From: an uncultured Bacteroidales bacterium
Lineage (GTDB): Bacteria > Bacteroidota > Bacteroidia > Bacteroidales > UBA1715
NCBI GenBank assembly: GCA_964558075.1
Contig: CAZLCY010000001.1
Coordinates: 1-48,158 of the forward strand
Direction: 5' to 3'
DNA length: 48,158 nucleotides
Made by a program: the position numbers and the translations under genes. Positions 1,546-28,834 of this stretch are shown one piece after another (the stretch's first letter is position 1; each line of letters starts with the position of its first letter). The notes below the pieces were generated by a model. The model saw only the letters and a list, made by a program, of their open reading frames with translations, had not been told where the DNA came from and ran no database searches.

Positions 1546-1574
1546 TTGACACACCATCAAAAATGTGATATAAT
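1546..1574 (+). promoter_or_regulatory. consensus promoter of the RNA operon
   Basis: TTGACA (1546-1551), a 17-nt spacer, then TATAAT (1569-1574). The first RNA gene starts 11 nt downstream. Confidence 0.75.
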
Positions 1575-1584
1575 AGATATATAA

Positions 1585-1667
1585 GGGGGCGAGATTGGCA
1601 CTCGACATCGACTAAAGCGTGTTTTAGCGCACTCGATTGGACGCGGGTTCGATTCCCGCCGCCTCCA
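1585..1667 (+). ncRNA. tmRNA-like tRNA-like domain only (mini-tmRNA, no tag ORF or pseudoknots)
   Basis: The acceptor stem is GGGGGCG/CGCCUCC with a G3:U70 pair and A73. The T arm is GCGGG-UUCGAUU-CCCGC. The 5' AGAUUGGCACUCGAC and 3' UUGGAC mirror the tmRNA D-loop analogue and GGAC linker. The interior is only about 31 nt (AUCGA/UCGAU helix plus a CUAAA-GCGUGU-UUUAG hairpin). No canonical anticodon arm can be drawn. Confidence 0.7.
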
Positions 1668-1675
1668 TTTATAAT

Positions 1676-1751
1676 CGCGGGGTAGTAGAGTGGTTTCATA
1701 CACAAGCCTCATAAGCTTGAAACAGGGGTTCAAATCCTCTCCCCGCTACCA
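1676..1751 (+). tRNA. tRNA with CAU anticodon (Met; could be initiator-like or Ile2 if lysidinylated)
   Basis: Cloverleaf drawn by hand. The acceptor is CGCGGGG/CCCCGCU with a C1xU72 mismatch. The anticodon stem is CAAGC/GCUUG with loop CUCAUAA. The T arm is AGGGG-UUCAAAU-CCUCU, followed by A73 and an encoded CCA. Confidence 0.9.
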
Positions 1752-1753
1752 AC

Positions 1754-1830
1754 AGTCCTGTGGTGTAATTTTGGTAACACATCAGCCTTTGAAGCTGAAT
1801 TTATAGGTTCGAGTCCTATCAGGACTGCCA
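1754..1830 (+). tRNA. tRNA-Gln (UUG)
   Basis: The acceptor is AGUCCUG/CAGGACU and the D stem is GUGU/ACAC. The anticodon stem is UCAGC/GCUGA with loop CUUUGAA. The T arm is AUAGG-UUCGAGU-CCUAU, followed by G73 and an encoded CCA. Confidence 0.9.
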
Positions 1831-1841
1831 ATTTTTTAATC

Positions 1842-1917
1842 GGCCCGTTGGCGAAATTTGGCAAACGCAACGAGTTTAAGCCTCGTACAGCTCCCGGTTC
1901 GAATCCGGGACGGGCTA
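1842..1917 (+). tRNA. tRNA-Leu (UAA) with a short (class I-like) variable region
   Basis: The acceptor is GGCCCGU/ACGGGCU. The anticodon stem is ACGAG/CUCGU with loop UUUAAGC (U33, anticodon UAA, G37). The T arm is CCCGG-UUCGAAU-CCGGG, followed by A73; CCA is not encoded. The variable region is only about 6 nt. Confidence 0.75.
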
Positions 1918-1954: not shown

Positions 1955-1993
1955 AAGACCAATTTCTTTATGAGATCTGGTCTTATTTTTTTT
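1955..1993 (+). terminator. rho-independent terminator of the RNA operon
   Basis: Stem AAGACCA (1955-1961) pairs with TGGTCTT (1978-1984) and is followed by A plus T8 (1985-1993). Confidence 0.7.
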
Positions 1994-2190: not shown

Positions 2191-2219
2191 TTGACATAAA
2201 AAGGGTTTTTTTATAAAAT
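2191..2219 (+). promoter_or_regulatory. candidate promoter (TTGACA-17-TAAAAT)
   Basis: TTGACA at 2191-2196, a 17-nt spacer, then TAAAAT at 2214-2219. It is upstream of, and in tandem with, the stronger promoter at 2371. Confidence 0.5.
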
Positions 2220-2370: not shown

Positions 2371-2399
2371 TTGACAGTTTGTACGAAATATGGTATAAT
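2371..2399 (+). promoter_or_regulatory. consensus extended promoter of the plus-strand modification operon
   Basis: TTGACA (2371-2376), a 17-nt spacer ending in TGG, then TATAAT (2394-2399). The RBS AAAGGAGG follows at 2408-2415. Confidence 0.8.
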
Positions 2400-5669: not shown

Positions 5670-6338
5670 TTACTCACTCCTTACTTTTATTCTTGCTTCT
5701 ATAGACACAACTTCATAGGATTTATCTTCTACAACCAGATTAGGATTATTCTCAAACGGATGAGAGTTAAATCTTACTTCAGTACCTTCTGGTGCTACAG
5801 CAGTTAAAAACGTTTCCATAAGTTCTAAATCATCTTCATTAGGTCTAACTAATGTGGGCCTGTTGGCCTTAGGATGATAAAAGATTTTGTATGTTTTATA
5901 ATTATTTTCTACATCAAATTTGTCCTCCGCTGTAGGCCAACCAGATACAATTATTAAACCAACTTCAAAATGTTCGCGCCAATAATGGGTATTAATATTG
6001 CTCTTTTTTACACGCCCACTTCCATAATGGATAAAATCTCCATTGTTATTAATAAGTATTCCGACGTGTGTTTTGTCATCTTCAGGCCCTATGCCTGTCG
6101 GTAATACTGCGTCGTATGTTCCACGAAATACTACTAAATCTCCAACTGTCGGTTTTTTTGTAACAAAACCATATTCAAAAAAGCGGGGAACCCATGTTAC
6201 ATGTTCTTTTTTCCAACCTGCACGTTCAAGTATAGTTGAAACAAAATCTGCGCAACCTTTGCTATAAGGGGAGGAGTAACCCTCCTGATACGCTTTTTCC
6301 GCTTCTTCTACGATTTTAAGGCTTATTTCTTTATTCAT
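5670..6338 (-). CDS. NlpC/P60-CHAP-type cell wall peptidase (putative endolysin)
   Basis: GCADFVSTILERAGW supplies the nucleophile Cys context. THVGILINNNGDFIHYGS supplies the His. Together they form a papain-like peptidoglycan hydrolase pattern. Confidence 0.65.
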   Translation of the reverse strand: MNKEISLKIVEEAEKAYQEGYSSPYSKGCADFVSTILERAGWKKEHVTWVPRFFEYGFVTKKPTVGDLVVFRGTYDAVLPTGIGPEDDKTHVGILINNNGDFIHYGSGRVKKSNINTHYWREHFEVGLIIVSGWPTAEDKFDVENNYKTYKIFYHPKANRPTLVRPNEDDLELMETFLTAVAPEGTEVRFNSHPFENNPNLVVEDKSYEVVSIEARIKVRSE

Positions 6339-7898: not shown

Positions 7899-10800
7899 TT
7901 ATTGTATATGAATTTCATTTTTTCGTTGGTTATCGTCCTCATCTGGATCTCGTATTACTTCACCTTGAACGTATTTAAGCCATAGACGTTCTTGTGGACT
8001 TAATCCATCTTTTTTAATGCGTTTTATTGTTTGTTCATTAAGCACACCATGAACATCGCTTGTTGTAAATGGTTTTTTCTCCGTCCGCCTCTGCGCGTTT
8101 CTAAACCTTTTATATGAAATATCAAAACCATTATTAATGGCTTCATCTTTAAATGCGTGTGCTAATCGCGAAAGTATTGCATCTTGTATTTCATATACAT
8201 TTTCTTCAGTAATTTTTTCATGTCTATTTCGAAGTTTAAGATAATCAGCGGCGGCATTATATTGACTCATTGTAACTTCTGGTTGATTCATTAACTTTTT
8301 AATAGTAAATTTATTGGCGCGGCTAACATATGTATTAATTATATCACTTTCTTTGTTTTGTTCCCAATTAGTTATATTGTAACCGCGTCGTTTTGCTTCA
8401 CTATATCGGGCTTCATCGGCAGATCTTACTCCGATAAGATTGAGCATAAGTTCCAGTCCATCATATTCTCTAACGTGTCCAGTTCTTATATCAACATTTA
8501 TAGGATATGTTCTTGCATCATTTAAAACTTTAAGACCTTCTTGTCCAAGTAAACTTACAGTACTATCTGCAAGAGTATCTTGCCATGACCAATTTTCATC
8601 ATTAAGTTCATTAGATTTCTCTATTTTATAATTAAGGGCGGCTCGACCAAAATTAAGTAACATTGCATGTGTAAGTAATGCACGAGTATCTCGCGCTTCT
8701 TTTTCTACTTTACCGGACGCAACAAGTTCGGGTTTACTTGATTGATATAATAAATCAACTATTTGTAAAAATGGAGTTTCAATATTCATAACACCACCCG
8801 GTTCAAATCTTGATCTCCAATCACCATTAGTTACTGAATTCACTACGCCTTCATCAAGAATGTCTAATACTACTAATGCACCATAATTCACAACTTTATT
8901 CATTACTTCCTGTTCTTCGGTTGATTGATCTAATTTTTCGGCACGTTGTGCCATCATATCATGAATAACACGTTTTATTCCGGTTTCTAATTGATGTGTT
9001 GCTTTATCAAGTAATTTAACTCGAAATGCGCCCTCGCCTTTTTCTTGATGTAAATTACGTTTTTTAGTAACATTAGCGACACCTTTAAGTGTCGAGTTTG
9101 TTGCACCTGTAAATATATTACTAAATCCCTGAAACATTCTATATCCAACAACAGATCCAATACCACCCAGCATTATTTCAGTAGCTACTTCTAACGGAAG
9201 TTGACTAATTTTTTTCATACTGCCCGGTTCTGCCATTTTCCATAAACCAGAAATTCCCTCTTCAGCTACATCATCTAAAGTACCAACTAACGCTTTCATA
9301 ACATTTAAATTTTTAGACCACGCATAAGTTTTAAATTGATTTAATGCTAAATCAATTATAGGGATTTGGAATATTAATCCTTTATTAGCGGATGTATAAT
9401 TAAAATGAACTGCGTTAATGCCTTCGGTAGTATTAATGACTGCATCTTTAAGTTCAGTCGTCCATGTAGTTGGATCGGTTATATCAACGTTAGGATCTTT
9501 TAACATTGTTACCATATCCATATCACCGAATTTGGCTTGAACTTCTTTCAATCGACCTAACTTTCCTTCAATACTTTTGCGCTTAACAGCAGGTAAATCC
9601 GGGTTTTTAAGTAAAGATTCAAACTCGGTAATCTTATTACCAACATTTGCAGTTCTTTCGTCTGCCCAATTAAGGTAAGCATAGAATGAGCGCAGTCTAT
9701 TATATTGTTCACTTTTTTTAAAGAAGTTAAGATGATCATTAACTGTTCTATTCCATACTCTTGTTCCGACGCCACCTTGTATTCCAAATTGACGTGTGCC
9801 TTCAGTAGCAAATGATTCGGGATCGAGTAATCCCAGTTTATATGCTACCTGCATTTTTTCTGGCATTTGTTTAATTAATTCGTCGTGAGGTAATCCTCTA
9901 TTTTGAAGTTTGATTTTTAAAAATCTCATGGAATCTGCGGTTGCTTCAACATGCGATCGTGTTGCAACTTTAGTTCCATATATAGCGTTATCGAATAATG
10001 CTTGCGTTGTATTAACTAACGCTGAAGCCGGATTATGTTTAACTTTCAATCCAGAGATTACGTTTCTTATTCCATATACTAAATTATTAAGAGTATTTTT
10101 TCCACGAGTGCGACCCATTACTCCTGACATTAATTTTTCAACATTATCCGCGTATTTACCACCGCCCGCTTTTCTTAAATTATTAACCACGCCTTCTGCT
10201 TCAATGAGTGCAGGCTCAAGCATAATTTTACGTCCAGCTTCCCTAAAATCATCTTCAAGAATATCTTTCAGGTTAATTTTATATTCCATCATTCCACGTT
10301 CGGGATCTACTTCGTAAGTTCTTCCGGCAACTTTTTCTTTAGGTAAACGACCTAAATCCATACCGCCTTTATTACTTATATTTTCAACAGAAATAGTTTT
10401 ATTAACACGATTTTTAAAATCTTCAAAATCTTTTATGTATTGATCCGGGGCTTCATTAAGTCCCGTATTTAATAAAAGATCTTTCATATCTTCTTTATCA
10501 AGATTACTCATGTTTCTAAGTAAATCTTGTTTATAAAAATCAAGTTGGCGTTTTTGACTAAACAATGTTTTATGTCCGGCGCGTTTACGATATTCCAGTA
10601 AGTTGTTAATTTTATCTTTAAAACTCTTTTTAACTTTTTTTGCATGTTTGTACATGTGTTCTCTAACATCTTTAAACCGCACATCTTGTGCAGTTTTAAA
10701 TTTTCGAATTTCTTTATTTCGTTCTATTCTATAGGCATGTATTTCCTTTTCTTTTTTATAATTTAATTCAGCTTTGTATTCATTGACTTTATTAGTAATA

Positions 10801-13800
10801 TCATCCGGTTTATATCGACCATCAGCTTCTAATGATTTTTTAAATGTTTCAACGCTTTCATTTATGTTTGCGTTCCACTCTTTACGTAATTCGCTTACAT
10901 ACTCTTTACTAAAAGACATTAAGTCTTTTTTCATTTGTTGTTTATTAACAGATTTAGCTTTTCTAAATCTTGAAACTATTTCACTTACATCACTATCAAA
11001 TTCTTTTTGTTGAATTTCAAAACCGCGTTTTAACGGTTCGGTTTTTAATTCTGCTTGCTCATTAGCCATTTTGTTTAATTGTTTAACATATTGAGGATCG
11101 TTCATTTGTTCTCTTAATACTTTCTTTTTTGTATTAATAAGATAATACACACGTTTTTCTATTTCGTCTATACGTTCTGTCGGGATGTTAATTCCAAGTT
11201 GATCTCTCATTGCTTGATATGGATCGTCGAGATGGAATGTATCAAGAAAAGTTTTTACGTTAGTATCATCCGCTGAAAAACCTACGTTATCACCTCTGCG
11301 ATACATAAAATCATATAAATCACCATAAGTAGTTCCAACATAAGATTGAATACCATCTGCTGATGATTCAGAAAGTTTTTTTCGAACTTCACCCCAGCCT
11401 TTAGTTGTGAAATATTTCTCAACATACATGTCTTTGGCAATATCTAATGCTTGTTGTTTTTTATCAACAGCGAGTTGTTTAACTAAACGTTTAGCGTTAA
11501 TATTTTTTGATACTTGATCAAATAATTCATCCTCCGTTGCAAGTCCTGTTTTATCAAGCATAAATTTAGTAATCTTTTCACGTTCGGTAGCGTCGAAAAT
11601 TTGTCCGGTTTTATATTCGTAACCAAAGTTTTTTTCTGCAATATCCGCTAATATTCTTGATTTACCCATGTTTACAGCATCTCTTGTATTTTTTGCAAAT
11701 AATGCAATCCGAGGGCCATCCTCTGAATGATAAATCACTTTTTGATTTCCTTCAACCGGTTTTTTAGGTAACCAATAATTAGGCTGTTTTTCTGGTAAAC
11801 CGGGTGGCTGAAAATCTGGATCGCTTAACAATTCATTAACACGTTTTGTTCTTTCAGTTCTTGTTGCGTTCCAATAAAATTCAGGATCGTTATCGACAAT
11901 ATAACGCTCGGTAGCGTTCCTTTTTAATTGTTCATATGAAGGTTTAAACCATCTTTCTTGTATGGTTTGATATACTTCTGCGAAGTTCTTATCTTCGATT
12001 AATAATTTATCGATCATATCAGAATCTTGATTACGCATAGCAGTATCCCATAAATTAGTAATTCGTTTAATTTCTTCTTTATCAAATTTAATTAAAGAAT
12101 CAGAAATGTCGGCCATACGGTGCATTTGTTGCGCATCGGCCATTTGTGTTAATGCTGAAGTTTCATCCCACAGCCTATTTACTGCCGCGATATGATCACG
12201 TAGTTCGTCTGCGCGTGGCAACATAAGTTCAAATAATTTACCAAATTCACGTTGGACTGGCATATATTGATGTACAGACAAACCCATTCGACCGAGCTTA
12301 GAACGTACTTTACCTACTGGAGTTTTTACATTTTCTCCCGGATGTGTAAAAGGTTCTATTTTGGTTCTTTTAGTATCAACAGTGCCCCTTAATTTATTTA
12401 GTTGATATTTAAGATTATTGTATAAACGTATTACACCATCTTTCACAGGTATTCCCGCGTGGAATTTCGCGAATGATTTCGAATATAGTGCATCATCTAA
12501 CCTTATCAAATCAGTATATTGTTCGGGATCAGCAATTTGTTTTAACGCATTAACTAAATCATCATCTAAAACATTATCCAACATTTTAATTGTTGATTTC
12601 TTTTTAGTAATATCAAGATTAGTGTTTTCAAGTAAGAATCTAACTCTATCCTCATTTAAATCTAACGGCCCATCGCCAAATTTAATATCAATGGGTGTAT
12701 CAAATTCTAAAGCGTTTTCTTCCGCGGCGCGCAAAATGTTATCCATTTCAATTCTAAAAATATCGGCCATTGCATTGTTATTTATTCTATCTTTAATAAA
12801 ACGTTTTCCAGCTCTGTAAAGATATTTTGAACCTTTATTTTTTCGAACGTGATTAATTAAACGTTGCTCCATTTGCGCAATCGTCGGGGCCGCTTCTAAA
12901 TCAGAATACATTATTCCTTCTGCATCCGCTTTTTTAACATCTTGTAGCGGTGTAAGAATCGTTTCTCCTGTAAATGTATCGACTTCATCTATAAGATGAC
13001 CATCGCGATGTAGCGTTCTCACGCGATAACCCGCTTTATAATCGTAGTTAGGATCAGGCGTTAAGCCCGTTCTTTCTTGTATGTCCTTAAATGTTCTTGC
13101 GATTCTTTCTTTATCAACCGCACTTTTACCATCTAAGACTTCCTGAAAATTAAATCCCATAAATTCAGCAGATAAATCATCTTTAAGATTATTCAAATTT
13201 CTAAGGGCGGAGCGTAATTTAACCTCCATTTTTTTGTCTGCATTTCCACTATCTAAAACAATATTTATGTTTGATATTTTTTCGTCGATATCATCAAGAT
13301 TTCTAACCAAGTTGTCAATTGTAGGCGAATTTTCAATTTCGTGATTAGCAACTCGACGTGCTACAGTCTTTTTGAATCCAATTTCGTTTGCTTGCTTTAA
13401 TAATTCTTGCACCTGTTCTGGGGTGGTTTTACTATAATCCTTTGGAACCAATTTAATGAATTCATCTTCAGATTGAATTATAGCATCATTTACAAGATTA
13501 CCGATTATTTCATTAACTTTGCCTTTAGATTTAATTGCTAATTGTTCCATTTCCGGGGTTATTTTTGCACCACGTTCCAAAAGCTTTTGATATTTTTCGA
13601 GCGTATTTCCAGCGTCAATAACTTCGTCAACTTGACCACTTTTCATGATAAGGTTCGGTATGTTATCACTATCAACAGCATTTTTAGGTAACATTCCCGG
13701 ATCAAAGTTATAGATTTGGTTCATTGAATTTTTAACTTCACCATGTTTAACAACATCATCGATCGCACCACCAAAATTATAAAATGCAGAAAAATCAACA

Positions 13801-15017
13801 ACCATATCAAGTGCGCCACCAACAAATTCTGCGCGATTGACCGCTATCATTCCTTCAGTTTCATTAAGAACGGCCTCACTCGGCGAATACAACCAATCTG
13901 CAAATCGGCCAAAAGTTCCTTTTTTACCAACATATTTTTTGAATACAGGATCGATGATTTCAGTTTTAGAGTCGCCCTTTTCAACTTCATAATTTATTTC
14001 GGTAGTATATTCTCCCGACCAAGTTTTATCTGCGCGGCGAATCTCTTGAAATACCGGTTTCATTCCTTCACTCACAAAACCGAGTAGCGGTATTCCGGCA
14101 ACGACATCACGCTCATCTAAATTATATAAATCAGCATTACCATTTAAAATATCTTCCCATGTTTGTCTAAAATTAACTAATTGTCCTGCCGCTTTAGCCG
14201 TCATTCGGCCCGGTAAAGAACCTAAATTCATAACACCGGTACCGGCGCCAGTAAGTGCATAATTTAAATCTTTAGAAGAACCACTCCGAAAAGTCGCGGC
14301 AAATGCGCCTTTAGCTTGTCGTATTTGTTCTGGAGAATATTGCTCTAATCGTAAATGTTGTGCCCATTGTTCGTCCGTGGGGGCGGGCCAATATACGACA
14401 GCATCATTTATATCTTCGCGTTTTAATTCATTTTCTCGCGTGAATACTGAATTATTATTTACGTCCGATTCCATAATTTCCGAGGCAATTGGAACTTTTT
14501 CAATTATAGTTTTTTCTTCATTATATTGTACCCACTTTTCGTTTTGTTTACCTAAAAATGCGCCTATATTTATAAGATCATTTTTAACACCCGTTATGTC
14601 TAATTTAATTCCATAATCATCGGATTCTTCCATCTCTTCAATATGTTTAACTAAATTTTCTCGTGTAAGGCTCCGATCGGGTTGTTTGCTTTGATATTCA
14701 GATAAAGCGGGTTCAATTAAATCACTTTTGAATAGTTCATATTCTGATGAACCGAGGGCAGTAAGTGGTTGACGTGCTCTATTTTGTATTTTACGTGCTT
14801 TATTAAAAACGAAATTTTTTGCATCATCAGTTAATACTACGCCTTCAGGTAATTGACCATTTTTAACTACATAGTCAACGTAGGGGCTAAGTTTTTTAGC
14901 CCCCTCTCCTTCTTGTTCGTTTGCCGGTGTTTCTCTAATAGGCGTTTCAGTTTTTTGATCATAATATGGCGATAAATCTAATTTGAAGCCATTATCGTCA
15001 TAGTTTAAAAAGTTCAA
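7899..15017 (-). CDS. giant virion-associated protein (2372 aa), putative internal/ejection protein
   Basis: This is a single uninterrupted 7.1-kb ORF. Its position, after the fibre and disordered-protein genes, resembles podovirus internal-protein modules. I recognised no polymerase, lysozyme or peptidase motif. Confidence 0.6.
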   Translation of the reverse strand: MNFLNYDDNGFKLDLSPYYDQKTETPIRETPANEQEGEGAKKLSPYVDYVVKNGQLPEGVVLTDDAKNFVFNKARKIQNRARQPLTALGSSEYELFKSDLIEPALSEYQSKQPDRSLTRENLVKHIEEMEESDDYGIKLDITGVKNDLINIGAFLGKQNEKWVQYNEEKTIIEKVPIASEIMESDVNNNSVFTRENELKREDINDAVVYWPAPTDEQWAQHLRLEQYSPEQIRQAKGAFAATFRSGSSKDLNYALTGAGTGVMNLGSLPGRMTAKAAGQLVNFRQTWEDILNGNADLYNLDERDVVAGIPLLGFVSEGMKPVFQEIRRADKTWSGEYTTEINYEVEKGDSKTEIIDPVFKKYVGKKGTFGRFADWLYSPSEAVLNETEGMIAVNRAEFVGGALDMVVDFSAFYNFGGAIDDVVKHGEVKNSMNQIYNFDPGMLPKNAVDSDNIPNLIMKSGQVDEVIDAGNTLEKYQKLLERGAKITPEMEQLAIKSKGKVNEIIGNLVNDAIIQSEDEFIKLVPKDYSKTTPEQVQELLKQANEIGFKKTVARRVANHEIENSPTIDNLVRNLDDIDEKISNINIVLDSGNADKKMEVKLRSALRNLNNLKDDLSAEFMGFNFQEVLDGKSAVDKERIARTFKDIQERTGLTPDPNYDYKAGYRVRTLHRDGHLIDEVDTFTGETILTPLQDVKKADAEGIMYSDLEAAPTIAQMEQRLINHVRKNKGSKYLYRAGKRFIKDRINNNAMADIFRIEMDNILRAAEENALEFDTPIDIKFGDGPLDLNEDRVRFLLENTNLDITKKKSTIKMLDNVLDDDLVNALKQIADPEQYTDLIRLDDALYSKSFAKFHAGIPVKDGVIRLYNNLKYQLNKLRGTVDTKRTKIEPFTHPGENVKTPVGKVRSKLGRMGLSVHQYMPVQREFGKLFELMLPRADELRDHIAAVNRLWDETSALTQMADAQQMHRMADISDSLIKFDKEEIKRITNLWDTAMRNQDSDMIDKLLIEDKNFAEVYQTIQERWFKPSYEQLKRNATERYIVDNDPEFYWNATRTERTKRVNELLSDPDFQPPGLPEKQPNYWLPKKPVEGNQKVIYHSEDGPRIALFAKNTRDAVNMGKSRILADIAEKNFGYEYKTGQIFDATEREKITKFMLDKTGLATEDELFDQVSKNINAKRLVKQLAVDKKQQALDIAKDMYVEKYFTTKGWGEVRKKLSESSADGIQSYVGTTYGDLYDFMYRRGDNVGFSADDTNVKTFLDTFHLDDPYQAMRDQLGINIPTERIDEIEKRVYYLINTKKKVLREQMNDPQYVKQLNKMANEQAELKTEPLKRGFEIQQKEFDSDVSEIVSRFRKAKSVNKQQMKKDLMSFSKEYVSELRKEWNANINESVETFKKSLEADGRYKPDDITNKVNEYKAELNYKKEKEIHAYRIERNKEIRKFKTAQDVRFKDVREHMYKHAKKVKKSFKDKINNLLEYRKRAGHKTLFSQKRQLDFYKQDLLRNMSNLDKEDMKDLLLNTGLNEAPDQYIKDFEDFKNRVNKTISVENISNKGGMDLGRLPKEKVAGRTYEVDPERGMMEYKINLKDILEDDFREAGRKIMLEPALIEAEGVVNNLRKAGGGKYADNVEKLMSGVMGRTRGKNTLNNLVYGIRNVISGLKVKHNPASALVNTTQALFDNAIYGTKVATRSHVEATADSMRFLKIKLQNRGLPHDELIKQMPEKMQVAYKLGLLDPESFATEGTRQFGIQGGVGTRVWNRTVNDHLNFFKKSEQYNRLRSFYAYLNWADERTANVGNKITEFESLLKNPDLPAVKRKSIEGKLGRLKEVQAKFGDMDMVTMLKDPNVDITDPTTWTTELKDAVINTTEGINAVHFNYTSANKGLIFQIPIIDLALNQFKTYAWSKNLNVMKALVGTLDDVAEEGISGLWKMAEPGSMKKISQLPLEVATEIMLGGIGSVVGYRMFQGFSNIFTGATNSTLKGVANVTKKRNLHQEKGEGAFRVKLLDKATHQLETGIKRVIHDMMAQRAEKLDQSTEEQEVMNKVVNYGALVVLDILDEGVVNSVTNGDWRSRFEPGGVMNIETPFLQIVDLLYQSSKPELVASGKVEKEARDTRALLTHAMLLNFGRAALNYKIEKSNELNDENWSWQDTLADSTVSLLGQEGLKVLNDARTYPINVDIRTGHVREYDGLELMLNLIGVRSADEARYSEAKRRGYNITNWEQNKESDIINTYVSRANKFTIKKLMNQPEVTMSQYNAAADYLKLRNRHEKITEENVYEIQDAILSRLAHAFKDEAINNGFDISYKRFRNAQRRTEKKPFTTSDVHGVLNEQTIKRIKKDGLSPQERLWLKYVQGEVIRDPDEDDNQRKNEIHIQ

Positions 15018-19033: not shown

Positions 19034-19519
19034 TTACCTCCTTTCGTAACTTCCTTGTTCTAATGCACCGTAGGTTTCAACGCCACCTAATGACATTGTA
19101 GATATACCGCTGTTTGTAGGATCATTAGTTTGATCTGTTCCCGCAAACGCTTGATCTACATACTCTTGTGCATTGGCGATGGCTTCATTATAAGCATCCG
19201 TCCAATTCATTCCCGAACCACCTGAATCTACAACAACATCGCCGATTCCAGGAATAGATACGGTTCCGACACTACCATCTCCGGGAGATAAATCAACAAT
19301 AGTAACATTAGTTTCTGGAGTTGATCCGCCACTCGTGCCCGCAATATTTTGTTGTCCTTGAGTTTCATCTGAATCCTCATCTTCGGGATCTCCAAAATCC
19401 ATTCCTTCATGTTGTGTATATGACCAATCACTTGTATTTCCGGGATTTACAGTAGATCCACCCGGACCAATTTGTGCTCCAGTTCCGGGGCCTACATAAA
19501 CTATAGGTACATTAGGCAT
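19034..19519 (-). CDS. hypothetical virion protein (161 aa), paralogous C-terminus
   Basis: The C-terminus GGVETYGALEQGSYERR aligns with that of the 85-aa ORF. The N-terminus is G-rich. Confidence 0.55.
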   Translation of the reverse strand: MPNVPIVYVGPGTGAQIGPGGSTVNPGNTSDWSYTQHEGMDFGDPEDEDSDETQGQQNIAGTSGGSTPETNVTIVDLSPGDGSVGTVSIPGIGDVVVDSGGSGMNWTDAYNEAIANAQEYVDQAFAGTDQTNDPTNSGISTMSLGGVETYGALEQGSYERR

Positions 19520-21027
19520 TAGCTAAACCCCCTTAATTCTCGCTGTATCCACGCATCAATAATCAATTTTTTCAATACTAATTCACCGTTTCCTTCTATC
19601 CGTAAAACACATTCAACAAAAGGCCTATTATTAGTTATTGGAATAATATATCCTTTATTATTTACATTAGATATTGTTTCTGCCAAAACAAAATCATCAT
19701 TAGGATCTATTCGAGTGTATATTTTAATTGTTTGTACTTCGACTCCATCAATACGAATTCTTCGTAATATTTTCTCTTTTGTAGGATAACCGAGATTTAA
19801 TGCGGGTGTTATTAGATATGGCGCAATACCACTACCAATATCAGTAATAGTGTATTTACCTAATGTTACTACACCCTGTTTTCCAAGCCAACAAGATGTT
19901 TTTGCAAAATGAACTCTCGCCGCGTAATGCGATGTTGTGCCGTCAGTTATTCCCAAATCGCTCCAATTACCCCACGTATTGTTTCTAACATTATAGACGT
20001 AATTAGTTTCCGTATCATTTATATCGGTACATACAACAACACCTTGTGCTTCATCAGGATATAAATATACTATCTTGTTTCTTAAACTATCTGCCACAAC
20101 ATATGGATTATCAGTATAAGGGCCAAGCTGTTGTATTCCTTTTGAGCCAAGCGTAATTAATCCTAAATCAGATAACCACATATATATGCGACCATTAAAA
20201 GGACAAAAAGATCGTTGACCGCCGGGAAGATAATTATTACTATTAAACACTTCAGTAAATGAAGACATTGTAATATATTGAGTATCTCCCAAAGTATATA
20301 TTTTTTTGAATACTCTAATTCCGGGTTTATTACTATTACCCATCATTAAGACGTAAAATTCTCCAGCAATATTTTCCATATGTATTATTTTTTCTCCACC
20401 CCAACCGAGGACAAAGAATTCATTACCACCTACTTTATCATAACCCTCGGATATATCTCCTCGTTCAGAGTATTTTAATACATTATCATCCGTAGCAACA
20501 AATAACCTCGCTTCAGTAACACCACAGACACCTTTAAAATCTGAATCAATTACATATTCCCACACAGGCGCTCCGCCACTAATAGTTATTTTATATACAG
20601 GTGTATCGCTTCCGCCGACGGCGAGAAAAACATCATTAAACGGTGCAAATGTTATACTTCCATCTTCGGAAACATTTTTATTATATGTCGCCGTAGCGAT
20701 TGCACCGGTAGCTTTATCATATACATATCCGGTTGAACCATCTGATATTTTACACCATCGTAATGAACCTCCGTTTAACGCATAAATATAAAATCCTGTC
20801 CAAACACATGCGCCTATTACTGTGTTATGTTCACAACTATCTTCCATAACAACTAATTCTGGACGGGATCTAATAATTCCATTTACAATTGCTGTATTAT
20901 GTCCATGATAAAATCCTAATGGTATATTAGGTTCTTGAAGATTAATGTCCATTGAATCATCAACCATCGGATAATGTCCTTTATTTATAGGAACAACAAC
21001 ACTAAATTCTCTATTCGCTCGTCCCAT
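19519..21027 (-). CDS. structural protein (502 aa), possibly tail tubular/nozzle-like
   Basis: The call rests on the ORF track, 1-nt start/stop overlaps with both neighbours, and position between the head and fibre genes. Position is the only functional evidence. Confidence 0.4.
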   Translation of the reverse strand: MGRANREFSVVVPINKGHYPMVDDSMDINLQEPNIPLGFYHGHNTAIVNGIIRSRPELVVMEDSCEHNTVIGACVWTGFYIYALNGGSLRWCKISDGSTGYVYDKATGAIATATYNKNVSEDGSITFAPFNDVFLAVGGSDTPVYKITISGGAPVWEYVIDSDFKGVCGVTEARLFVATDDNVLKYSERGDISEGYDKVGGNEFFVLGWGGEKIIHMENIAGEFYVLMMGNSNKPGIRVFKKIYTLGDTQYITMSSFTEVFNSNNYLPGGQRSFCPFNGRIYMWLSDLGLITLGSKGIQQLGPYTDNPYVVADSLRNKIVYLYPDEAQGVVVCTDINDTETNYVYNVRNNTWGNWSDLGITDGTTSHYAARVHFAKTSCWLGKQGVVTLGKYTITDIGSGIAPYLITPALNLGYPTKEKILRRIRIDGVEVQTIKIYTRIDPNDDFVLAETISNVNNKGYIIPITNNRPFVECVLRIEGNGELVLKKLIIDAWIQRELRGFS

Positions 21028-27106: not shown

Positions 27107-28834
27107 CTATTCTACTCTTTGTGCAGAATTTTTTGATAATTGAACGTTCTCCGGTTTTGCTTCATTTACAGCCATATCCCGTAACATTTCCTCTGGATAG
27201 TGCGGTAACATTAACGGAATTACATGTTTGCGCATTACCGCTTGATCAACAAAAGGATCTTGCGACAATAGCTGATACATTTGTACCGCCGTTTGTTGAT
27301 CGATCATTGTTTTATTAGGATTAATTTGTAAAGTGATAGAGTATTCTTTAACCATTTCCTGCGTCATTACTGGTTCCATCGCACCGACGCCCGCGGCATT
27401 ATTAGAGGCGAACATCGGCCCCGGAGAAGTAATAGACATCATCAGCAGAACATATTTTAATAAAGGAATTATGCCTATAGACACAATAATATCTAATTCA
27501 AAATCAAATTTCATTGTAGCTTGTCCATACATTTTATTGGTTTCAGATGTCGTCATACGTTCATTTTTAGCCGCTCCGCCCTGAATTAACGATGATGCTG
27601 ATGATATATCTGCCGCTTCTTTTTCAAGATATGATATTTCCTCATTTGCCTTTTGTGTTACATCAGGAACGGCTAAGGGCCGTATGCCGTCAGGATTGTT
27701 AACAATAATTTTTCTATTTCCGGCAACAATCAAATCACTTGTTTTATCTATTGCGCCTTTTTGGATCATAAATGGTGTATTTAATATCTTATTGATATTA
27801 TCGGCGCGCTGATTACGTTTGACATCAGCCTCGTTTTGTCTATCAAGTAATAATTCCCCGATTGATTTTAACCAAAATTCATCATCTACCGGAAGATTTA
27901 CTTGTATTGTAAAAAATGGATAACCAATAAAATTAGGTTGTACTTTTAAGAGATAATCGTCATCAGCAACAGTAACAATAAAATTATTGTCATAATATTC
28001 TTTAACACAAACACGACCAAATTTTTCTTCTGACCACTCACTACTTATAGAATCACGCATATCATCGCGATATTCTTCTTCATAAAATAATGATTTAAAT
28101 GTGTCTGTCAATTTATCTTTATCTAAATCAAGTTCTTCTTTACCAAACATGTGCCGATAATGATCTTTCAGAAGTCTTTCCCCTTCTTTTTTATCATAAA
28201 TACCTGCATCAGTTTTCGCCTTAATTTCATCATAACCAAGCCACATACGATGTACAATGAATTGAGCGTCATTTACGTTCGTAGCAAACGGATCAATCAT
28301 AAAATCTCTCGGATTAATCCACATGATATTAGGAACACCTGTTTGTCTGTTTGGTATTACTTTAATAATTCCACGTCCATATAAAATTGCAGACTTAATT
28401 GCTCGCGCAATAGTATATCCATAATCCGCTCCAACAAAACACTTTTGAAAAAGTAAGTTTTCTATTTTATATTGGCGAACGTTTGTATTACTATCCGTAA
28501 CTTTAATAAAATTAAGTTTGGGATTTATAATATTGATCGCCGACATGGCGACTTTAGTTTCAACATGACGTAATGTTAATGGAGTCTTTATGTTTATCTT
28601 TGGTTTTGTAATTCCTCTCGGAGTAGAAAACTCCTTTTCGCAACGATAGGCATCACGTATGTCATCCCACGTAGAATGTAATTCAGACATTTCTCCGCGA
28701 ACAAATTCAAATTTTTCTACAACTTGTGTAATAAGTTTCTGTTTTTCATCTTCATCCCAAGATTCAAAATCTATATTTAAAGAATCTTTAACCATACCTA
28801 TAATTGATTCTTCTAATTGTAAATTAAAATCCAT
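27107..28834 (-). CDS. putative portal protein (575 aa)
   Basis: Its start abuts the TerL nuclease-half stop (28834/28835). Size and position are typical for a portal. No motif-level proof. Confidence 0.6.
   Translation of the reverse strand: MDFNLQLEESIIGMVKDSLNIDFESWDEDEKQKLITQVVEKFEFVRGEMSELHSTWDDIRDAYRCEKEFSTPRGITKPKINIKTPLTLRHVETKVAMSAINIINPKLNFIKVTDSNTNVRQYKIENLLFQKCFVGADYGYTIARAIKSAILYGRGIIKVIPNRQTGVPNIMWINPRDFMIDPFATNVNDAQFIVHRMWLGYDEIKAKTDAGIYDKKEGERLLKDHYRHMFGKEELDLDKDKLTDTFKSLFYEEEYRDDMRDSISSEWSEEKFGRVCVKEYYDNNFIVTVADDDYLLKVQPNFIGYPFFTIQVNLPVDDEFWLKSIGELLLDRQNEADVKRNQRADNINKILNTPFMIQKGAIDKTSDLIVAGNRKIIVNNPDGIRPLAVPDVTQKANEEISYLEKEAADISSASSLIQGGAAKNERMTTSETNKMYGQATMKFDFELDIIVSIGIIPLLKYVLLMMSITSPGPMFASNNAAGVGAMEPVMTQEMVKEYSITLQINPNKTMIDQQTAVQMYQLLSQDPFVDQAVMRKHVIPLMLPHYPEEMLRDMAVNEAKPENVQLSKNSAQRVE

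Follow-up and report, generated by a model that had tools for sequence, protein, structure and literature searches.

Previously described relatives

Trans-translation is the main bacterial ribosome-rescue system, and SmpB-tmRNA is a proposed antibiotic target. The one natural phage tmRNA consisting of the tRNA-like domain (TLD) only that we know of in the literature is that of mycobacteriophage DS6A; the preliminary description of the DNA studied here knew of no such RNA from any phage, and on that point the DS6A gene overturns it. The DS6A RNA is published as a 'TLD only' tmRNA (tmRNA Website tmID 11587) and is classed as 'Standard, no CDS' in the tmRNA database of 2025; of the 97,179 sequences there, nine have this form, whatever their origin (PMC11915505). 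We located its gene, which is unannotated in GenBank, at 28478-28560 of JN698994; it scores 43.2 bits with the Rfam tmRNA model and 72.1 bits with R1, the family covariance model described below, of which it is itself a seed. What seems new here is the breadth of TLD-only phage tmRNAs; the kind was already known from DS6A, and has barely been studied.

In laboratory work SmpB binds the TLD and enhances its aminoacylation, a TLD fragment plus SmpB supports template-free polyalanine synthesis, and a crystal structure of the pre-accommodation ribosome holds a tmRNA fragment with SmpB and EF-Tu (PMC3929946). According to the literature, isolated TLDs bind both of these factors and enter the ribosome. 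Organelles that have tag-less tmRNAs keep them alongside SmpB, and a role in dealing with incomplete mRNAs has been suggested for them (PMC11915505). Among the phages with full-length tmRNAs, Melnitz carries its tmRNA gene just downstream of an early promoter, and the Lacusarx genome has many tRNA genes besides its tmRNA (PMC9004378; PMC5648845).

A tmRNA tRNA-like domain without a tag template

The window (the whole stretch of 48,158 nucleotides that was analysed) contains a gene for the tRNA-like domain of a tmRNA that lacks a tag template, which we call a mini-tmRNA; its parts and its surroundings are listed in table 1. The Rfam tmRNA model RF00023 matches positions 1585-1670 of the plus strand with 51.9 bits (gathering score 47, E 1.2e-17), in an alignment that runs over model positions 1-374 with 27 nt in place of the 316 central positions that hold the pseudoknots and the tag ORF. 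By this alignment and the minimum free energy (MFE) fold, pseudoknots PK1-PK4 are absent and the 27 nt form one small hairpin. No tag ORF (resume codon, tag frame and in-frame stop) was found in the element, its sole stop-bounded frame being UAA-AGC-GUG-UUU-UAG. Family model R1, whose 14 seeds do not include the window element, gives it 57.6 bits (E 6.4e-10), and a degenerate mini-tmRNA pattern matches the window once, at this gene, and matches 0 of 100 dinucleotide shuffles.

Table 1. Coordinates of the mini-tmRNA, its structural parts and the neighbouring operon features in the window
Feature	Position	Strand	Evidence and remarks
Candidate sigma-70-type promoter	1546..1574	+	-35 TTGACA 1546-1551, 17-nt spacer, -10 TATAAT 1569-1574
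Mini-tmRNA gene (tRNA-like domain only)	1585..1667	+	83 nt to discriminator A73; RF00023 match, R1 match, pattern
Acceptor stem 5' strand GGGGGCG	1585..1591	+	7/7 pairs with 1660-1666; G3 = 1587
Deformed D-arm analogue AGATTGGCACTCGA	1592..1605	+	GG = 1597-1598; G-A 1604-1605 opposite GAC linker
P2-like helix 5' strand CATCGA	1606..1611	+	Pairs with 1633-1639, U1638 bulged
P2 cap	1612..1632	+	MFE fold; layout common to DS6A and most family members
P2-like helix 3' strand TCGATTG	1633..1639	+	MFE fold, DS6A comparison, family covariation
GAC linker	1640..1642	+	tmRNA GGAC junction, counting closing G of P2; RF00023 consensus alignment
T arm GCGGG-TTCGATT-CCCGC	1643..1659	+	5-bp stem, 7-nt loop; RF00023
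Acceptor stem 3' strand CGCCTCC + discriminator A (1667)	1660..1667	+	U70 equivalent = 1664
tRNA-Met (CAT)	1676..1751	+	ARAGORN; Rfam tRNA 57.8 bits; 8 nt 3' of mini-tmRNA
tRNA-Gln (TTG)	1754..1830	+	ARAGORN; Rfam tRNA 67.8 bits
tRNA-Leu (TAA)	1842..1917	+	ARAGORN; Rfam tRNA 53.3 bits
Intrinsic-terminator-like hairpin 1955-1984 + T8 1986-1993	1955..1993	+	Fold of 1918-2000

The acceptor stem joins G1587 with U1664 as the G3:U70 pair, followed by A73; in tmRNA this AlaRS identity pair is 'completely conserved' (PMC3985003). CCA is not encoded, and TTT lies directly 3' of A73. The element has no D stem; its ..TTGG..TCGA D-arm analogue and GAC linker can be read from the sequence, and the former aligns with the tmRNA consensus Au.cuGGaUU.CGAC in RF00023. 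Posterior probabilities are mostly >=0.9 along AGATTGGCACTCGAC ... TTGGAC, that is, in the D arm and the GGAC junction into P2, the region contacted by SmpB. Judged by its sequence, then, the element appears to hold the determinants for alanylation by AlaRS, for binding to SmpB and EF-Tu and for cleavage of its 5' end by RNase P.

The preliminary description had argued for a tmRNA-type TLD from just these features (the fully paired ends with G3:U70 and A73, the T arm, the D-loop analogue and the GGAC linker), and had found no resume-codon ORF beyond trivial ones and no 7-nt anticodon loop. Its reading is borne out by the covariance model, and the two negatives hold as well: the only frame between stops has three codons, and in the MFE fold the inner loop has 6 nt on a 4-bp stem. 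The inner hairpin CUAAA/UUUAG that it had drawn was rejected, as it is not the MFE fold and does not fit the family. The MFE fold and comparison with DS6A and the family favour instead a P2 with pairs C22-G55 and A23-U53 to A27-U49 and with U54 bulged, capped by an A-rich 5' loop CTAAA (1612-1616), the hairpin GCGT-GTTTTA-GCGC (1617-1630) and a 3' loop AC (1631-1632).

Could the gene be an aberrant tRNA, whether of class II or a tRNA-Ala-like gene or pseudogene, and not a tmRNA derivative? An acceptor stem, a T arm and G3:U70 are common to tRNA-Ala, and the locus lies among tRNA genes, but ARAGORN calls no gene of any kind at this position, and the best Rfam family is tmRNA, which exceeds its gathering score and outscores tRNA (RF00005) within the Rfam clan at this locus. 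The tmRNA-specific ..GG..UCGAC / GGAC junction is present, whereas the D stem and a 7-nt-loop anticodon arm are not, and inner loops parsed across the family are mostly of 4-6 nt; we hold this origin to be exceedingly improbable. As for other kinds of tmRNA, the two-piece permuted model RF04321 reaches 21.2 bits, below its gathering score of 47, in an alignment that borrows the 5' end of the next tRNA, and the mitochondrial model RF02544 is unlisted in an E<=10 scan in which lower-scoring clan members overlapping the tmRNA match were suppressed.

Promoter, operon and phage context

The mini-tmRNA heads an operon with three tRNA genes behind a perfect TTGACA-17-TATAAT sequence, as had been described. 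The candidate promoter agrees with the consensus at 12 of 12 positions and has a TG extended -10 at 1566-1567 (promoter scan; this is a consensus match and not functional proof), and G1 of the mini-tmRNA is the 11th nucleotide 3' of the -10 hexamer, with 10 nt between. The tRNA genes lie on the same strand and are followed by a hairpin and U8 that probably form the end of the mini-tmRNA/tRNA operon; the fold of 1918-2000 has -17.7 kcal/mol (z = -3.4), and 0 of 200 shuffles were as stable. A simple terminator scan misses this terminator.

The window phage is a low-GC phage with PolA and an SU10-type adaptor, and no integrase was found among the window ORFs of >=100 aa (Pfam, PHROGs). Hints as to its host point weakly to a low-GC Gram-positive bacterium. 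A tblastn search with E. coli SmpB (a query that Pfam recognises as SmpB with 194 bits) found no SmpB in the window or in the 93 viral loci discussed below. When relatives were sought through the neighbouring PAPS-reductase-like protein, a single 43%-identical IMG/VR locus was found, which has neither tRNA nor mini-tmRNA. Against 50,697 GenBank phages, BLAST with the operon (1400-2000) and with the 86-nt gene turned up either nothing or matches confined to the T arm and acceptor, in att sites and full tmRNAs.

A family of mini-tmRNAs in viral metagenomes

We scanned IMG/VR with one degenerate pattern that requires the T arm and leaves the 3' acceptor strand unconstrained. Of its 93 matches, 85 are mini-tmRNA genes, representing 68 distinct sequences of 66-86 nt. 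In every one of the 68 the acceptor stem is paired 7/7 and includes G3:U70, and A73 is present, even though the 3' strand was not in the search pattern, and the acceptor pairs that neighbour G3:U70 vary freely. The GG of the D-arm analogue is present in 64 of the 68, and the linker is GAC in 57, with CAC, TAC or AAC in the remainder; the T arm is canonical throughout, as the search pattern demanded. The motif [T/G]AA[A/G] recurs in the A-rich internal loop of 41 of the 68 (shuffle mean 15, maximum 26), and nine of the middle domains have no stop triplet in any frame.

The preliminary description had suggested that homologues be searched for covariation, and it is there in all three helices as compensatory changes. 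Among the 68-69 distinct viral sequences 99% of the helix cells are paired and 252 cells are changed on both sides, with a covariation score of 0.568 against 0.121 for shuffled alignments (0/500) and at most 0.084 in slid controls. The acceptor and T-arm helices are both 100% paired, and pairs 5-7 covary in the former and two pairs in the latter; the outer four pairs of P2 are 96% paired in 69 sequences, three of the four showing double changes. The R1 model was built on 14 sequences, DS6A among them and the window element excluded.

A window-specific pattern has six matches in JGI metagenomes, two genuine tmRNAs and four mini-tmRNAs, of which two are identical to one IMG/VR sequence (L012) and none belongs to the lineage of the window phage. 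In a scan of a genome collection nearly all of the matches listed, at least 120 in number, are ends of genuine tmRNAs or class II tRNAs, a result that marks the viral matches as special and leaves room for prophage-borne mini-tmRNAs. Two other family members, used as BLAST queries on those 50,697 GenBank phages, gave 3'-half matches only, and no cultured carrier beyond DS6A was found by this route. Unannotated matches in five isolates, Pseudomonas SM1, Xanthomonas Rb1, Achromobacter JWDelta, Synechococcus S-CAM3 and Tunturiibacter Tunturi_5, were rejected as mini-tmRNAs, having 24-36 bits with the family model and broken acceptor stems; these five may be permuted tmRNAs or fragments. The TLD-only type is widespread in viral metagenomes, and its breadth looks under-described.

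The 3' ends of tmRNA genes are common integration sites, and the element could in principle be a non-functional remnant, either an attP-type scar of the termini of a host ssrA, an alternative that the preliminary description had raised, or a decayed full-length phage tmRNA. Such sequences do occur among the matches: eight of the 93 in IMG/VR have no matching 5' acceptor strand and are either ssrA 3' fragments or full tmRNAs, and genuine tmRNA ends account for nearly all of the genome-collection matches listed. The window gene, however, has both halves with 7/7 pairing, has its own consensus promoter at the head of a tRNA operon, and lies in a phage with no integrase in the window ORFs; decay would not yield 68 distinct sequences that keep a 66-86-nt design with compensatory changes; and the integration site of DS6A is a tRNA-Lys gene and not ssrA (PMC10865867). 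A remnant is thus very improbable.

With regard to gene neighbourhoods, a tRNA gene is nearby at 26 of the 68 loci, the nearest always being on the same strand and less than 100 nt away at 14 loci. When the 932 ORFs that lie within 3 kb of the 68 genes were clustered all against all, no conserved partner protein emerged, no family being present at more than seven loci. The loci, seven at most, that share ORF families appear to belong to related phages, with similar mini-tmRNAs and several ORF families in common.

These neighbourhoods bear on the idea that the RNA is a decoy, or masks a trigger, for a host factor outside ribosome rescue, such as an anti-phage nuclease or sensor of tmRNA/tRNA-like acceptor and T arms, or modulates RNase R; SmpB-like OB-fold domains of CoCoNuT systems and toxins that cleave acceptor stems are candidate targets. 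In the window the gene has a consensus early promoter, and its short plus-strand region also holds DNA-methylase-like and PAPS-reductase-like genes. Genes of these two kinds are typical of early counter-defence modules. The SmpB-like domains of CoCoNuT systems are predicted to bind tmRNA (PMC11090510), and a phage anti-CRISPR complex includes tmRNA fragments (PMC11662646). This support is purely circumstantial, however; no protein family recurs near the 68 genes, and a decoy leaves the invariant AlaRS identity elements unexplained, so we think it improbable that this is what the RNA does.

Possible function in infected cells

We hold it moderately probable that the mini-tmRNA is an alanine-chargeable, SmpB-binding competitor of host tmRNA which uncouples or blocks ssrA tagging. 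The observed structure, conservation, covariation, gene context and missing tag are the starting point of this reading; that the RNA is expressed, charged, bound by SmpB and of benefit to this phage we infer. The phage would supply a tag-less tmRNA mimic, in which a full tRNA-like domain has a small hairpin closing P2 where pseudoknots and a tag template would take up about 300 nt. Host RNA polymerase would transcribe it with the three tRNAs as one precursor from the consensus early promoter, and the tRNA-processing machinery would mature it (RNase P at G1, 3' trimming, CCA addition). Host AlaRS could then charge it with alanine by way of G3:U70 and A73, and it would bind host SmpB and, once charged, EF-Tu, competing with full-length host tmRNA for SmpB and for stalled ribosomes. 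Lacking a resume codon, a tag ORF and a stop codon, it could not complete trans-translation, and the net effect would be that ssrA tagging and the linked degradation of mRNA and protein are suppressed or uncoupled during infection.

Such a role agrees with the Williams-lab reports on the TLD-only form: passages of PMC4131195 and PMC11915505 that cite Mao et al. 2009 describe strong inhibition of tmRNA by a TLD-only RNA in E. coli, with titration of SmpB as a possible cause, and a passage of PMC4131195 has a similar RNA inhibiting tmRNA whether or not it was chargeable. Against the competitor reading, blocked ribosome rescue could hurt the phage too. The model assigns no part to the recurrent A-rich internal loop, and a position within tRNA arrays is as compatible with translation support as with an inhibitor. 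Moreover, U70 and A73 are invariant though a pure SmpB sponge would not need them, and the charged RNA therefore probably acts on the ribosome, perhaps with a productive outcome.

Such a productive outcome is conceivable, though we give it only limited credence: the alanine-charged mini-tmRNA would enter stalled ribosomes, take over the nascent chain and add one or several untemplated alanines, and an alternative release would free the ribosome, so that ribosomes stay available (for example when the phage or host defences have cleaved mRNA or tRNA) and the tag-directed proteolysis and mRNA decay that come with host tmRNA are avoided. That G3:U70 and A73 are fixed in the whole family while neighbouring acceptor pairs are free argues that charging is under selection; the gene stands in same-strand tRNA arrays; and the organellar precedents for tag-less tmRNAs that are kept with SmpB point the same way (PMC11915505). 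The inhibition reported in that passage of PMC4131195, chargeable RNA or not, speaks against it, as do the lack of any release factor, ArfB or Pth homologue seen in the window and of a conserved protein partner in the neighbourhoods. We also know of no release step for a peptidyl-Ala-TLD in the P site with the A site empty.

It is unlikely, in our judgement, that phage mini-tmRNAs, once charged with alanine, run template-free rescue with host SmpB and EF-Tu by repeated entry into stalled ribosomes and untemplated addition of alanine or polyalanine, as synthetic TLDs do in vitro. Template-free rescue does explain the invariance of G3:U70 and A73 (68/68) and the tRNA-array context better than a sponge does. 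If true, it would give phages a clearance of their own for ribosomes that stall when defences cleave mRNA or tRNA or when the phage shuts off its host, and a template-free pathway that bypasses host quality control through the tag, ClpXP and RNase R.

Implications

Returning to the favoured reading, a competitor of host tmRNA, widespread phage RNAs of this kind would single out ribosome rescue as a neglected process that phages regularly attack in taking over the cell, and mini-tmRNAs might serve as small natural inhibitors of, or probes for, SmpB-tmRNA. The invariant alanine-identity elements raise the question of a sponge versus an action on the ribosome. There is a gap between databases and viromes, with one phage example (DS6A) in the literature and no fewer than 68 distinct sequences among viral contigs in our scan. 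As regards annotation, ARAGORN misses mini-tmRNAs, and pipelines based on Rfam say 'tmRNA' without flagging the absent tag.

Comparison with known systems

The att fragments of ssrA 3' ends resemble the window element in having GGAC, the T arm, the acceptor 3' strand and the CCA sequence, but they are integrase-linked and are without the matching 5' acceptor strand and D-arm analogue, while the window gene has both halves and a promoter, and no integrase. The full-length phage tmRNAs (the mycobacteriophage Bxz1 group, Bacillus phage G, Streptomyces phages, and the two-piece tmRNAs of Melnitz and pelagimyophages) are likewise phage-borne ssrA homologues; they keep the tag ORF and pseudoknots and can complete trans-translation, whereas the window RNA cannot.

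Tag-less organellar tmRNAs (those of jakobid and other mitochondria, and the ~65-bp plastid genes of Mallomonadaceae) are also natural, reduced to the tRNA-like domain and without a tag frame. They are, however, cellular or organellar genes, mostly circularly permuted, with their own SmpB, in a resident rescue system; the phage mini-tmRNA would be an intruder that depends on, and hence competes for, host SmpB beside an intact host tmRNA. Synthetic TLDs (T. thermophilus PDB 2CZJ; Shimizu and Ueda 2006; Neubauer 2012) share with it tmRNA ends joined by a short loop, in PDB 2CZJ 25 residues of the 5' end and 34 of the 3' end with a UUCG joint. These are laboratory constructs, while the window element occurs in nature as a gene that is under selection, with a longer P2 and the recurrent A-rich internal loop, neither of which is in the constructs.

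The DS6A RNA belongs to the same TLD-only type. DS6A, a temperate siphovirus that infects M. tuberculosis, has an integrase, and the window phage is unrelated to it; the DS6A gene has only protein genes beside it and lies 14 kb from the nearest tRNA, whereas the window gene heads a tRNA operon behind a consensus promoter; and the linker is GCAC in DS6A but GGAC in the window element. Both, nevertheless, are phage-encoded RNAs of ~80 nt with a complete tRNA-like domain and without a tag ORF, and the 6-bp P2 of DS6A, with its A-rich internal loop and 4-bp hairpin, is matched segment by segment by the window element.

A tmRNA reduced to its tRNA-like domain

The gene at positions 1585–1667 (+) of the window (GGGGGCGAGAUUGGCACUCGACAUCGACUAAAGCGUGUUUUAGCGCACUCGAUUGGACGCGGGUUCGAUUCCCGCCGCCUCCA) is a tmRNA consisting only of the tRNA-like domain (TLD), here called a mini-tmRNA or mini; it is of the type carried by phage DS6A, a kind already known and almost unstudied. 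The Rfam tmRNA model RF00023 (curated gathering score 47) matches 1585–1670 over model positions 1–374 with 51.9 bits (E 1.2e-17), and only 27 nt stand for 316 central model positions, which cover the four pseudoknots as well as the tag reading frame. The defining parts of a tmRNA TLD, an acceptor stem with G3:U70 and A73, a deformed D arm, a GGAC junction and a T arm, are all aligned to the model, so the tag-less TLD and the parts recognized in the preliminary description, which also proposed Rfam and ARAGORN runs, stand. ARAGORN makes neither a tRNA nor a tmRNA call here, though it finds the three tRNAs downstream, and this argues against an odd tRNA, which we regard as exceedingly improbable. 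A permuted tmRNA model scores only 21.2 bits at the gene. A degenerate mini-tmRNA pattern has one match in the whole window, this gene, and none in 100 dinucleotide shuffles; the gene is real and far above chance expectation. Its sole stop-bounded frame is UAA-AGC-GUG-UUU-UAG, so it cannot encode a tag.

Promoters, operon and gene content

G1 of the mini-tmRNA is the 11th base past a consensus promoter, and with tRNA-Met, -Gln and -Leu following and a hairpin-U8 closing the unit (table), the promoter and three-tRNA operon of the preliminary description are upheld. Three plus-strand sigma-70 promoters lie within 850 nt and head the sole plus-strand gene block of the window, the second and third being directed towards methylase-like and PAPS-reductase-like genes. 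Since all three are consensus or near-consensus and face the same way, this short block is probably an early region transcribed by host RNA polymerase.

Features of the window
Feature	Position	Strand	Remarks
Promoter TTGACA-17-TATAAT	1546–1574	+	12/12 consensus; TG extended -10
Mini-tmRNA	1585–1667	+
Acceptor stem			7 bp, G3:U70, discriminator A; aligned to RF00023
Deformed D arm			..UUGG..UCGAC; aligned to RF00023
GGAC junction			aligned to RF00023
Canonical T arm			GCGGG-UUCGAUU-CCCGC; aligned to RF00023
tRNA-Met(CAT)	1676–1751		starts 8 nt past A73
tRNA-Gln(UUG), then tRNA-Leu(UAA)			downstream of tRNA-Met(CAT)
Terminator-like hairpin, then U8	1955–1984		end of mini-tmRNA/tRNA unit; fold z = -3.4
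Sigma-70 promoter	2191–2219	+	11/12 consensus
Sigma-70 promoter	2371–2399	+	12/12 consensus
NlpC/P60-CHAP lysin	5670–6338	-	minus-strand block
2,372-aa ORF	7899–15017	-	no Pfam or PHROG match
502-aa ORF	19519–21027		no PHROG family; Pfam sub-threshold only
Portal, capsid, SU10-type adaptor		-	minus-strand block
Family-A DNA polymerase, primase, helicase		-	minus-strand block

The acceptor stem of tRNA-Met(CAT) is topped by a C1xA72 mismatch, a hallmark of bacterial initiator tRNAs, but the anticodon stem (CAAGC/GCUUG) is without the run of three G-C pairs that initiators have; the tRNA could be an initiator, an elongator or Ile2. About 470 nt upstream of the mini-tmRNA promoter, four non-coding copies of the 14-nt motif CGCA(T/G)NT(G/A)CTAACA start at 998, 1018, 1039 and 1060 (span 998–1073), 20–21 nt apart, and could be operator or iteron-like sites. 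A G+C-rich patch at 1400–1500 (gacgggggtctttggacgggacgcggacgtcctatggggggtgcacccgcacg), which matches no Rfam family, lies directly upstream of the A+T-rich promoter region, and adjoining microsatellites at 2106–2165, about six (ACAT) and then about nine (ATT) repeats, separate the tRNA-operon terminator from the next promoter.

The remainder of the window is a minus-strand gene block. Neither an integrase nor an SmpB, a release factor or any other translation factor was detected in the window; that no integrase turned up among its ORFs of at least 100 aa by Pfam or PHROGs speaks against the mini-tmRNA being a remnant or att scar, which is very unlikely. Among cultured phages the polymerase is nearest to those of Bacillus-type phages, at about 27% identity, so the phage is a new lineage, possibly with a low-GC Gram-positive host. 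The 502-aa ORF has no tblastn match among 50,697 GenBank phages, and for the nearby ORFs of 418, 437 and 448 aa there is neither a PHROG family nor a Pfam match above threshold. Identical copies of the lysin are present on a contig of 4.9 kb, JBMCPT010000101.1 (binned in NCBI MAG GCA_048626015.1), and in the public sequencing run Logan SRR21542054, matches that could aid identification of habitat and host.

Related genes in viral metagenomes

Strict and relaxed patterns, both of which leave the 3' acceptor strand unconstrained, found 26 and 91 loci in IMG/VR, respectively; with the window and DS6A (GenBank) added, 93 matches were counted. In 85 of these the 3' acceptor strand pairs 7/7 with the 5' strand; the other eight were rejected as ordinary tmRNA 3'-end fragments or full tmRNAs. 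The 85 represent 68 distinct sequences, 66–86 nt long up to A73 (CCA is encoded in 33), and every one of the 68 ends in NNNCUCC-A, that is, with G3:U70 and A73. Their acceptor 5' strands come in 14 versions, all perfectly compensated, and the GG of the D-arm analogue is retained in 64.

The homologue search and covariation analysis proposed in the preliminary description thus gave 68 distinct sequences and a clear signal. A family covariance model built from 14 of the distinct minis scores 69 genes at 50–85 bits (the window gene at 57.6). In the model alignment of these 69 genes, standard pairs occupy 99.0% of cells (77.4% in column shuffles), both-side changes 252 cells (74 in shuffles), and the score for covariation is 0.568, where shuffles give 0.121 (none of 500 equals the real value) and slid partners no more than 0.084. 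The search pattern itself dictated part of the T arm, G1–G4 and the C-G pair that closes P2, but it left free the pairs that covary: 5–7 in the acceptor stem, 2 and 4 in the T arm and 2–4 in P2. The Rfam tmRNA model passes 18 of 19 minis tested; that of DS6A, at 43.2 bits, is below the gathering score. ARAGORN calls none among the viral loci.

The same pattern gave at least 120 matches in one genome per bacterial and archaeal species, and nearly all of those listed are 3' ends of genuine tmRNAs, through a chance fit of GGGG...CGAC in the last pseudoknot region, or class II tRNAs. That 85 of 93 matches in the viral search are minis, against nearly none among the genome matches listed, sets the mini form apart as viral, with prophage copies possible. 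A tRNA lies within the retrieved locus of 26 of the 68 distinct minis, the nearest always on the same strand (within 100 nt in 14 cases and 500 nt in 19). Neither the window nor the viral mini loci encode an SmpB homologue, and no neighbouring protein family reaches more than seven loci, apparently those of related phages, so the RNA appears to work with host proteins.

One viral mini locus (L055) has a Pistol ribozyme match at 5916–6012 (-; 50.7 bits, GA 34.5), 2.2 kb from its mini. Unannotated tmRNA-like T-arm and acceptor 3' ends are also present in the cultured phages Pseudomonas SM1, Xanthomonas Rb1, Achromobacter JWDelta, Synechococcus S-CAM3 (beneath a hypothetical-protein CDS) and Tunturiibacter Tunturi_5 (L217–L221). 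These were rejected as minis (no matching 5' strand nearby; 24–36 bits on the mini model) and may be permuted two-piece tmRNAs or fragments.

The middle domain

Most minis share a layout in which P2 (4–9 bp in 61/68) leads into an A-rich 5' internal loop, followed by a short hairpin rich in G+C (3–4 bp, loop 4–6 nt) and a 3' loop of 0–3 nt, often A or AC; a plain hairpin replaces this layout in a few. In the minimum-free-energy fold of the window gene, P2 (C22-G55 and A23-U53 to A27-U49, with U54 bulged) is capped by CUAAA (1612–1616), a GCGU-GUUUUA-GCGC hairpin and AC, in place of the CUAAA/UUUAG inner hairpin drawn previously. Nine of the 68 middle domains have no stop triplet in any frame, so a terminated tag is not conserved across the family. 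In 41/68 middle domains the 5' half contains the motif [U/G]AA[A/G] (shuffles: mean 15, maximum 26), its start most commonly eight nucleotides in. This A-rich loop might serve as a second site of contact with SmpB or the ribosome, or be what is left of the stretch preceding the resume codon; none of the explanations considered here accounts for it.

Possible function

The selected TLD structure, missing tag, strong promoter, co-transcription with tRNAs and lack of a phage SmpB are best read as a dead-end competitor of host tmRNA on the ribosome, a reading we favour somewhat. The mini-tmRNA would be processed like the neighbouring tRNAs, receive CCA and be alanylated, and would then be a rival of host tmRNA for both SmpB and stalled ribosomes. 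Early in infection this would suppress or bypass ssrA tagging together with the degradation coupled to it. All 68 minis, divergent as they are, have U70 and A73, whereas adjacent acceptor pairs vary freely with compensation, and a pure SmpB sponge would have no need of the alanine identity set; alanine charging thus seems to be under selection, which suggests that the RNA acts on the ribosome. A tag-free rescue device, possibly adding alanine tails, is a less probable explanation that deserves consideration, and an on-ribosome, template-free activity, if true, would be the finding of greater interest. It is unlikely that the RNA acts instead as a decoy for another defence factor that binds tmRNA or tRNA.

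Comparison with DS6A and other TLD-only RNAs

TLD-only RNAs are reported to bind SmpB and EF-Tu and enter the A site, SmpB binding to the TLD enhances aminoacylation, and a pre-accommodation complex of ribosome, tmRNA fragment, SmpB and EF-Tu has been crystallised (PMC3929946; PMC3985003); inhibition of tmRNA in vivo by a TLD-only RNA is also reported (Mao et al. 2009, via PMC4131195 and PMC11915505). The 2025 tmRNA database paper (PMC11915505) has nine "Standard, no CDS" sequences among 97,179 and names DS6A, a pair of plastid genes about 65 bp long and mitochondrial tmRNAs that lack a tag. A natural TLD-only phage tmRNA, of which the preliminary description knew none, had therefore already been published. 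A literature search on the term "mini-tmRNA" returned no paper, and no description of the breadth of the family in viromes was found in the literature; new here are that the TLD-only kind is widespread in viral metagenomes, often in tRNA arrays, that its alanine identity elements are always kept, and that common annotation tools miss or under-describe it.

The published DS6A "TLD only" tmRNA is unannotated in its GenBank record (JN698994), where we located it at 28478–28560, in the gap between gp33 and gp34; DS6A gp76 is an RtcB-like RNA ligase. Since DS6A is reported to integrate at a tRNA-Lys gene (PMC10865867), its mini is not its attP. Segment by segment, the DS6A mini and the window gene have the same architecture.
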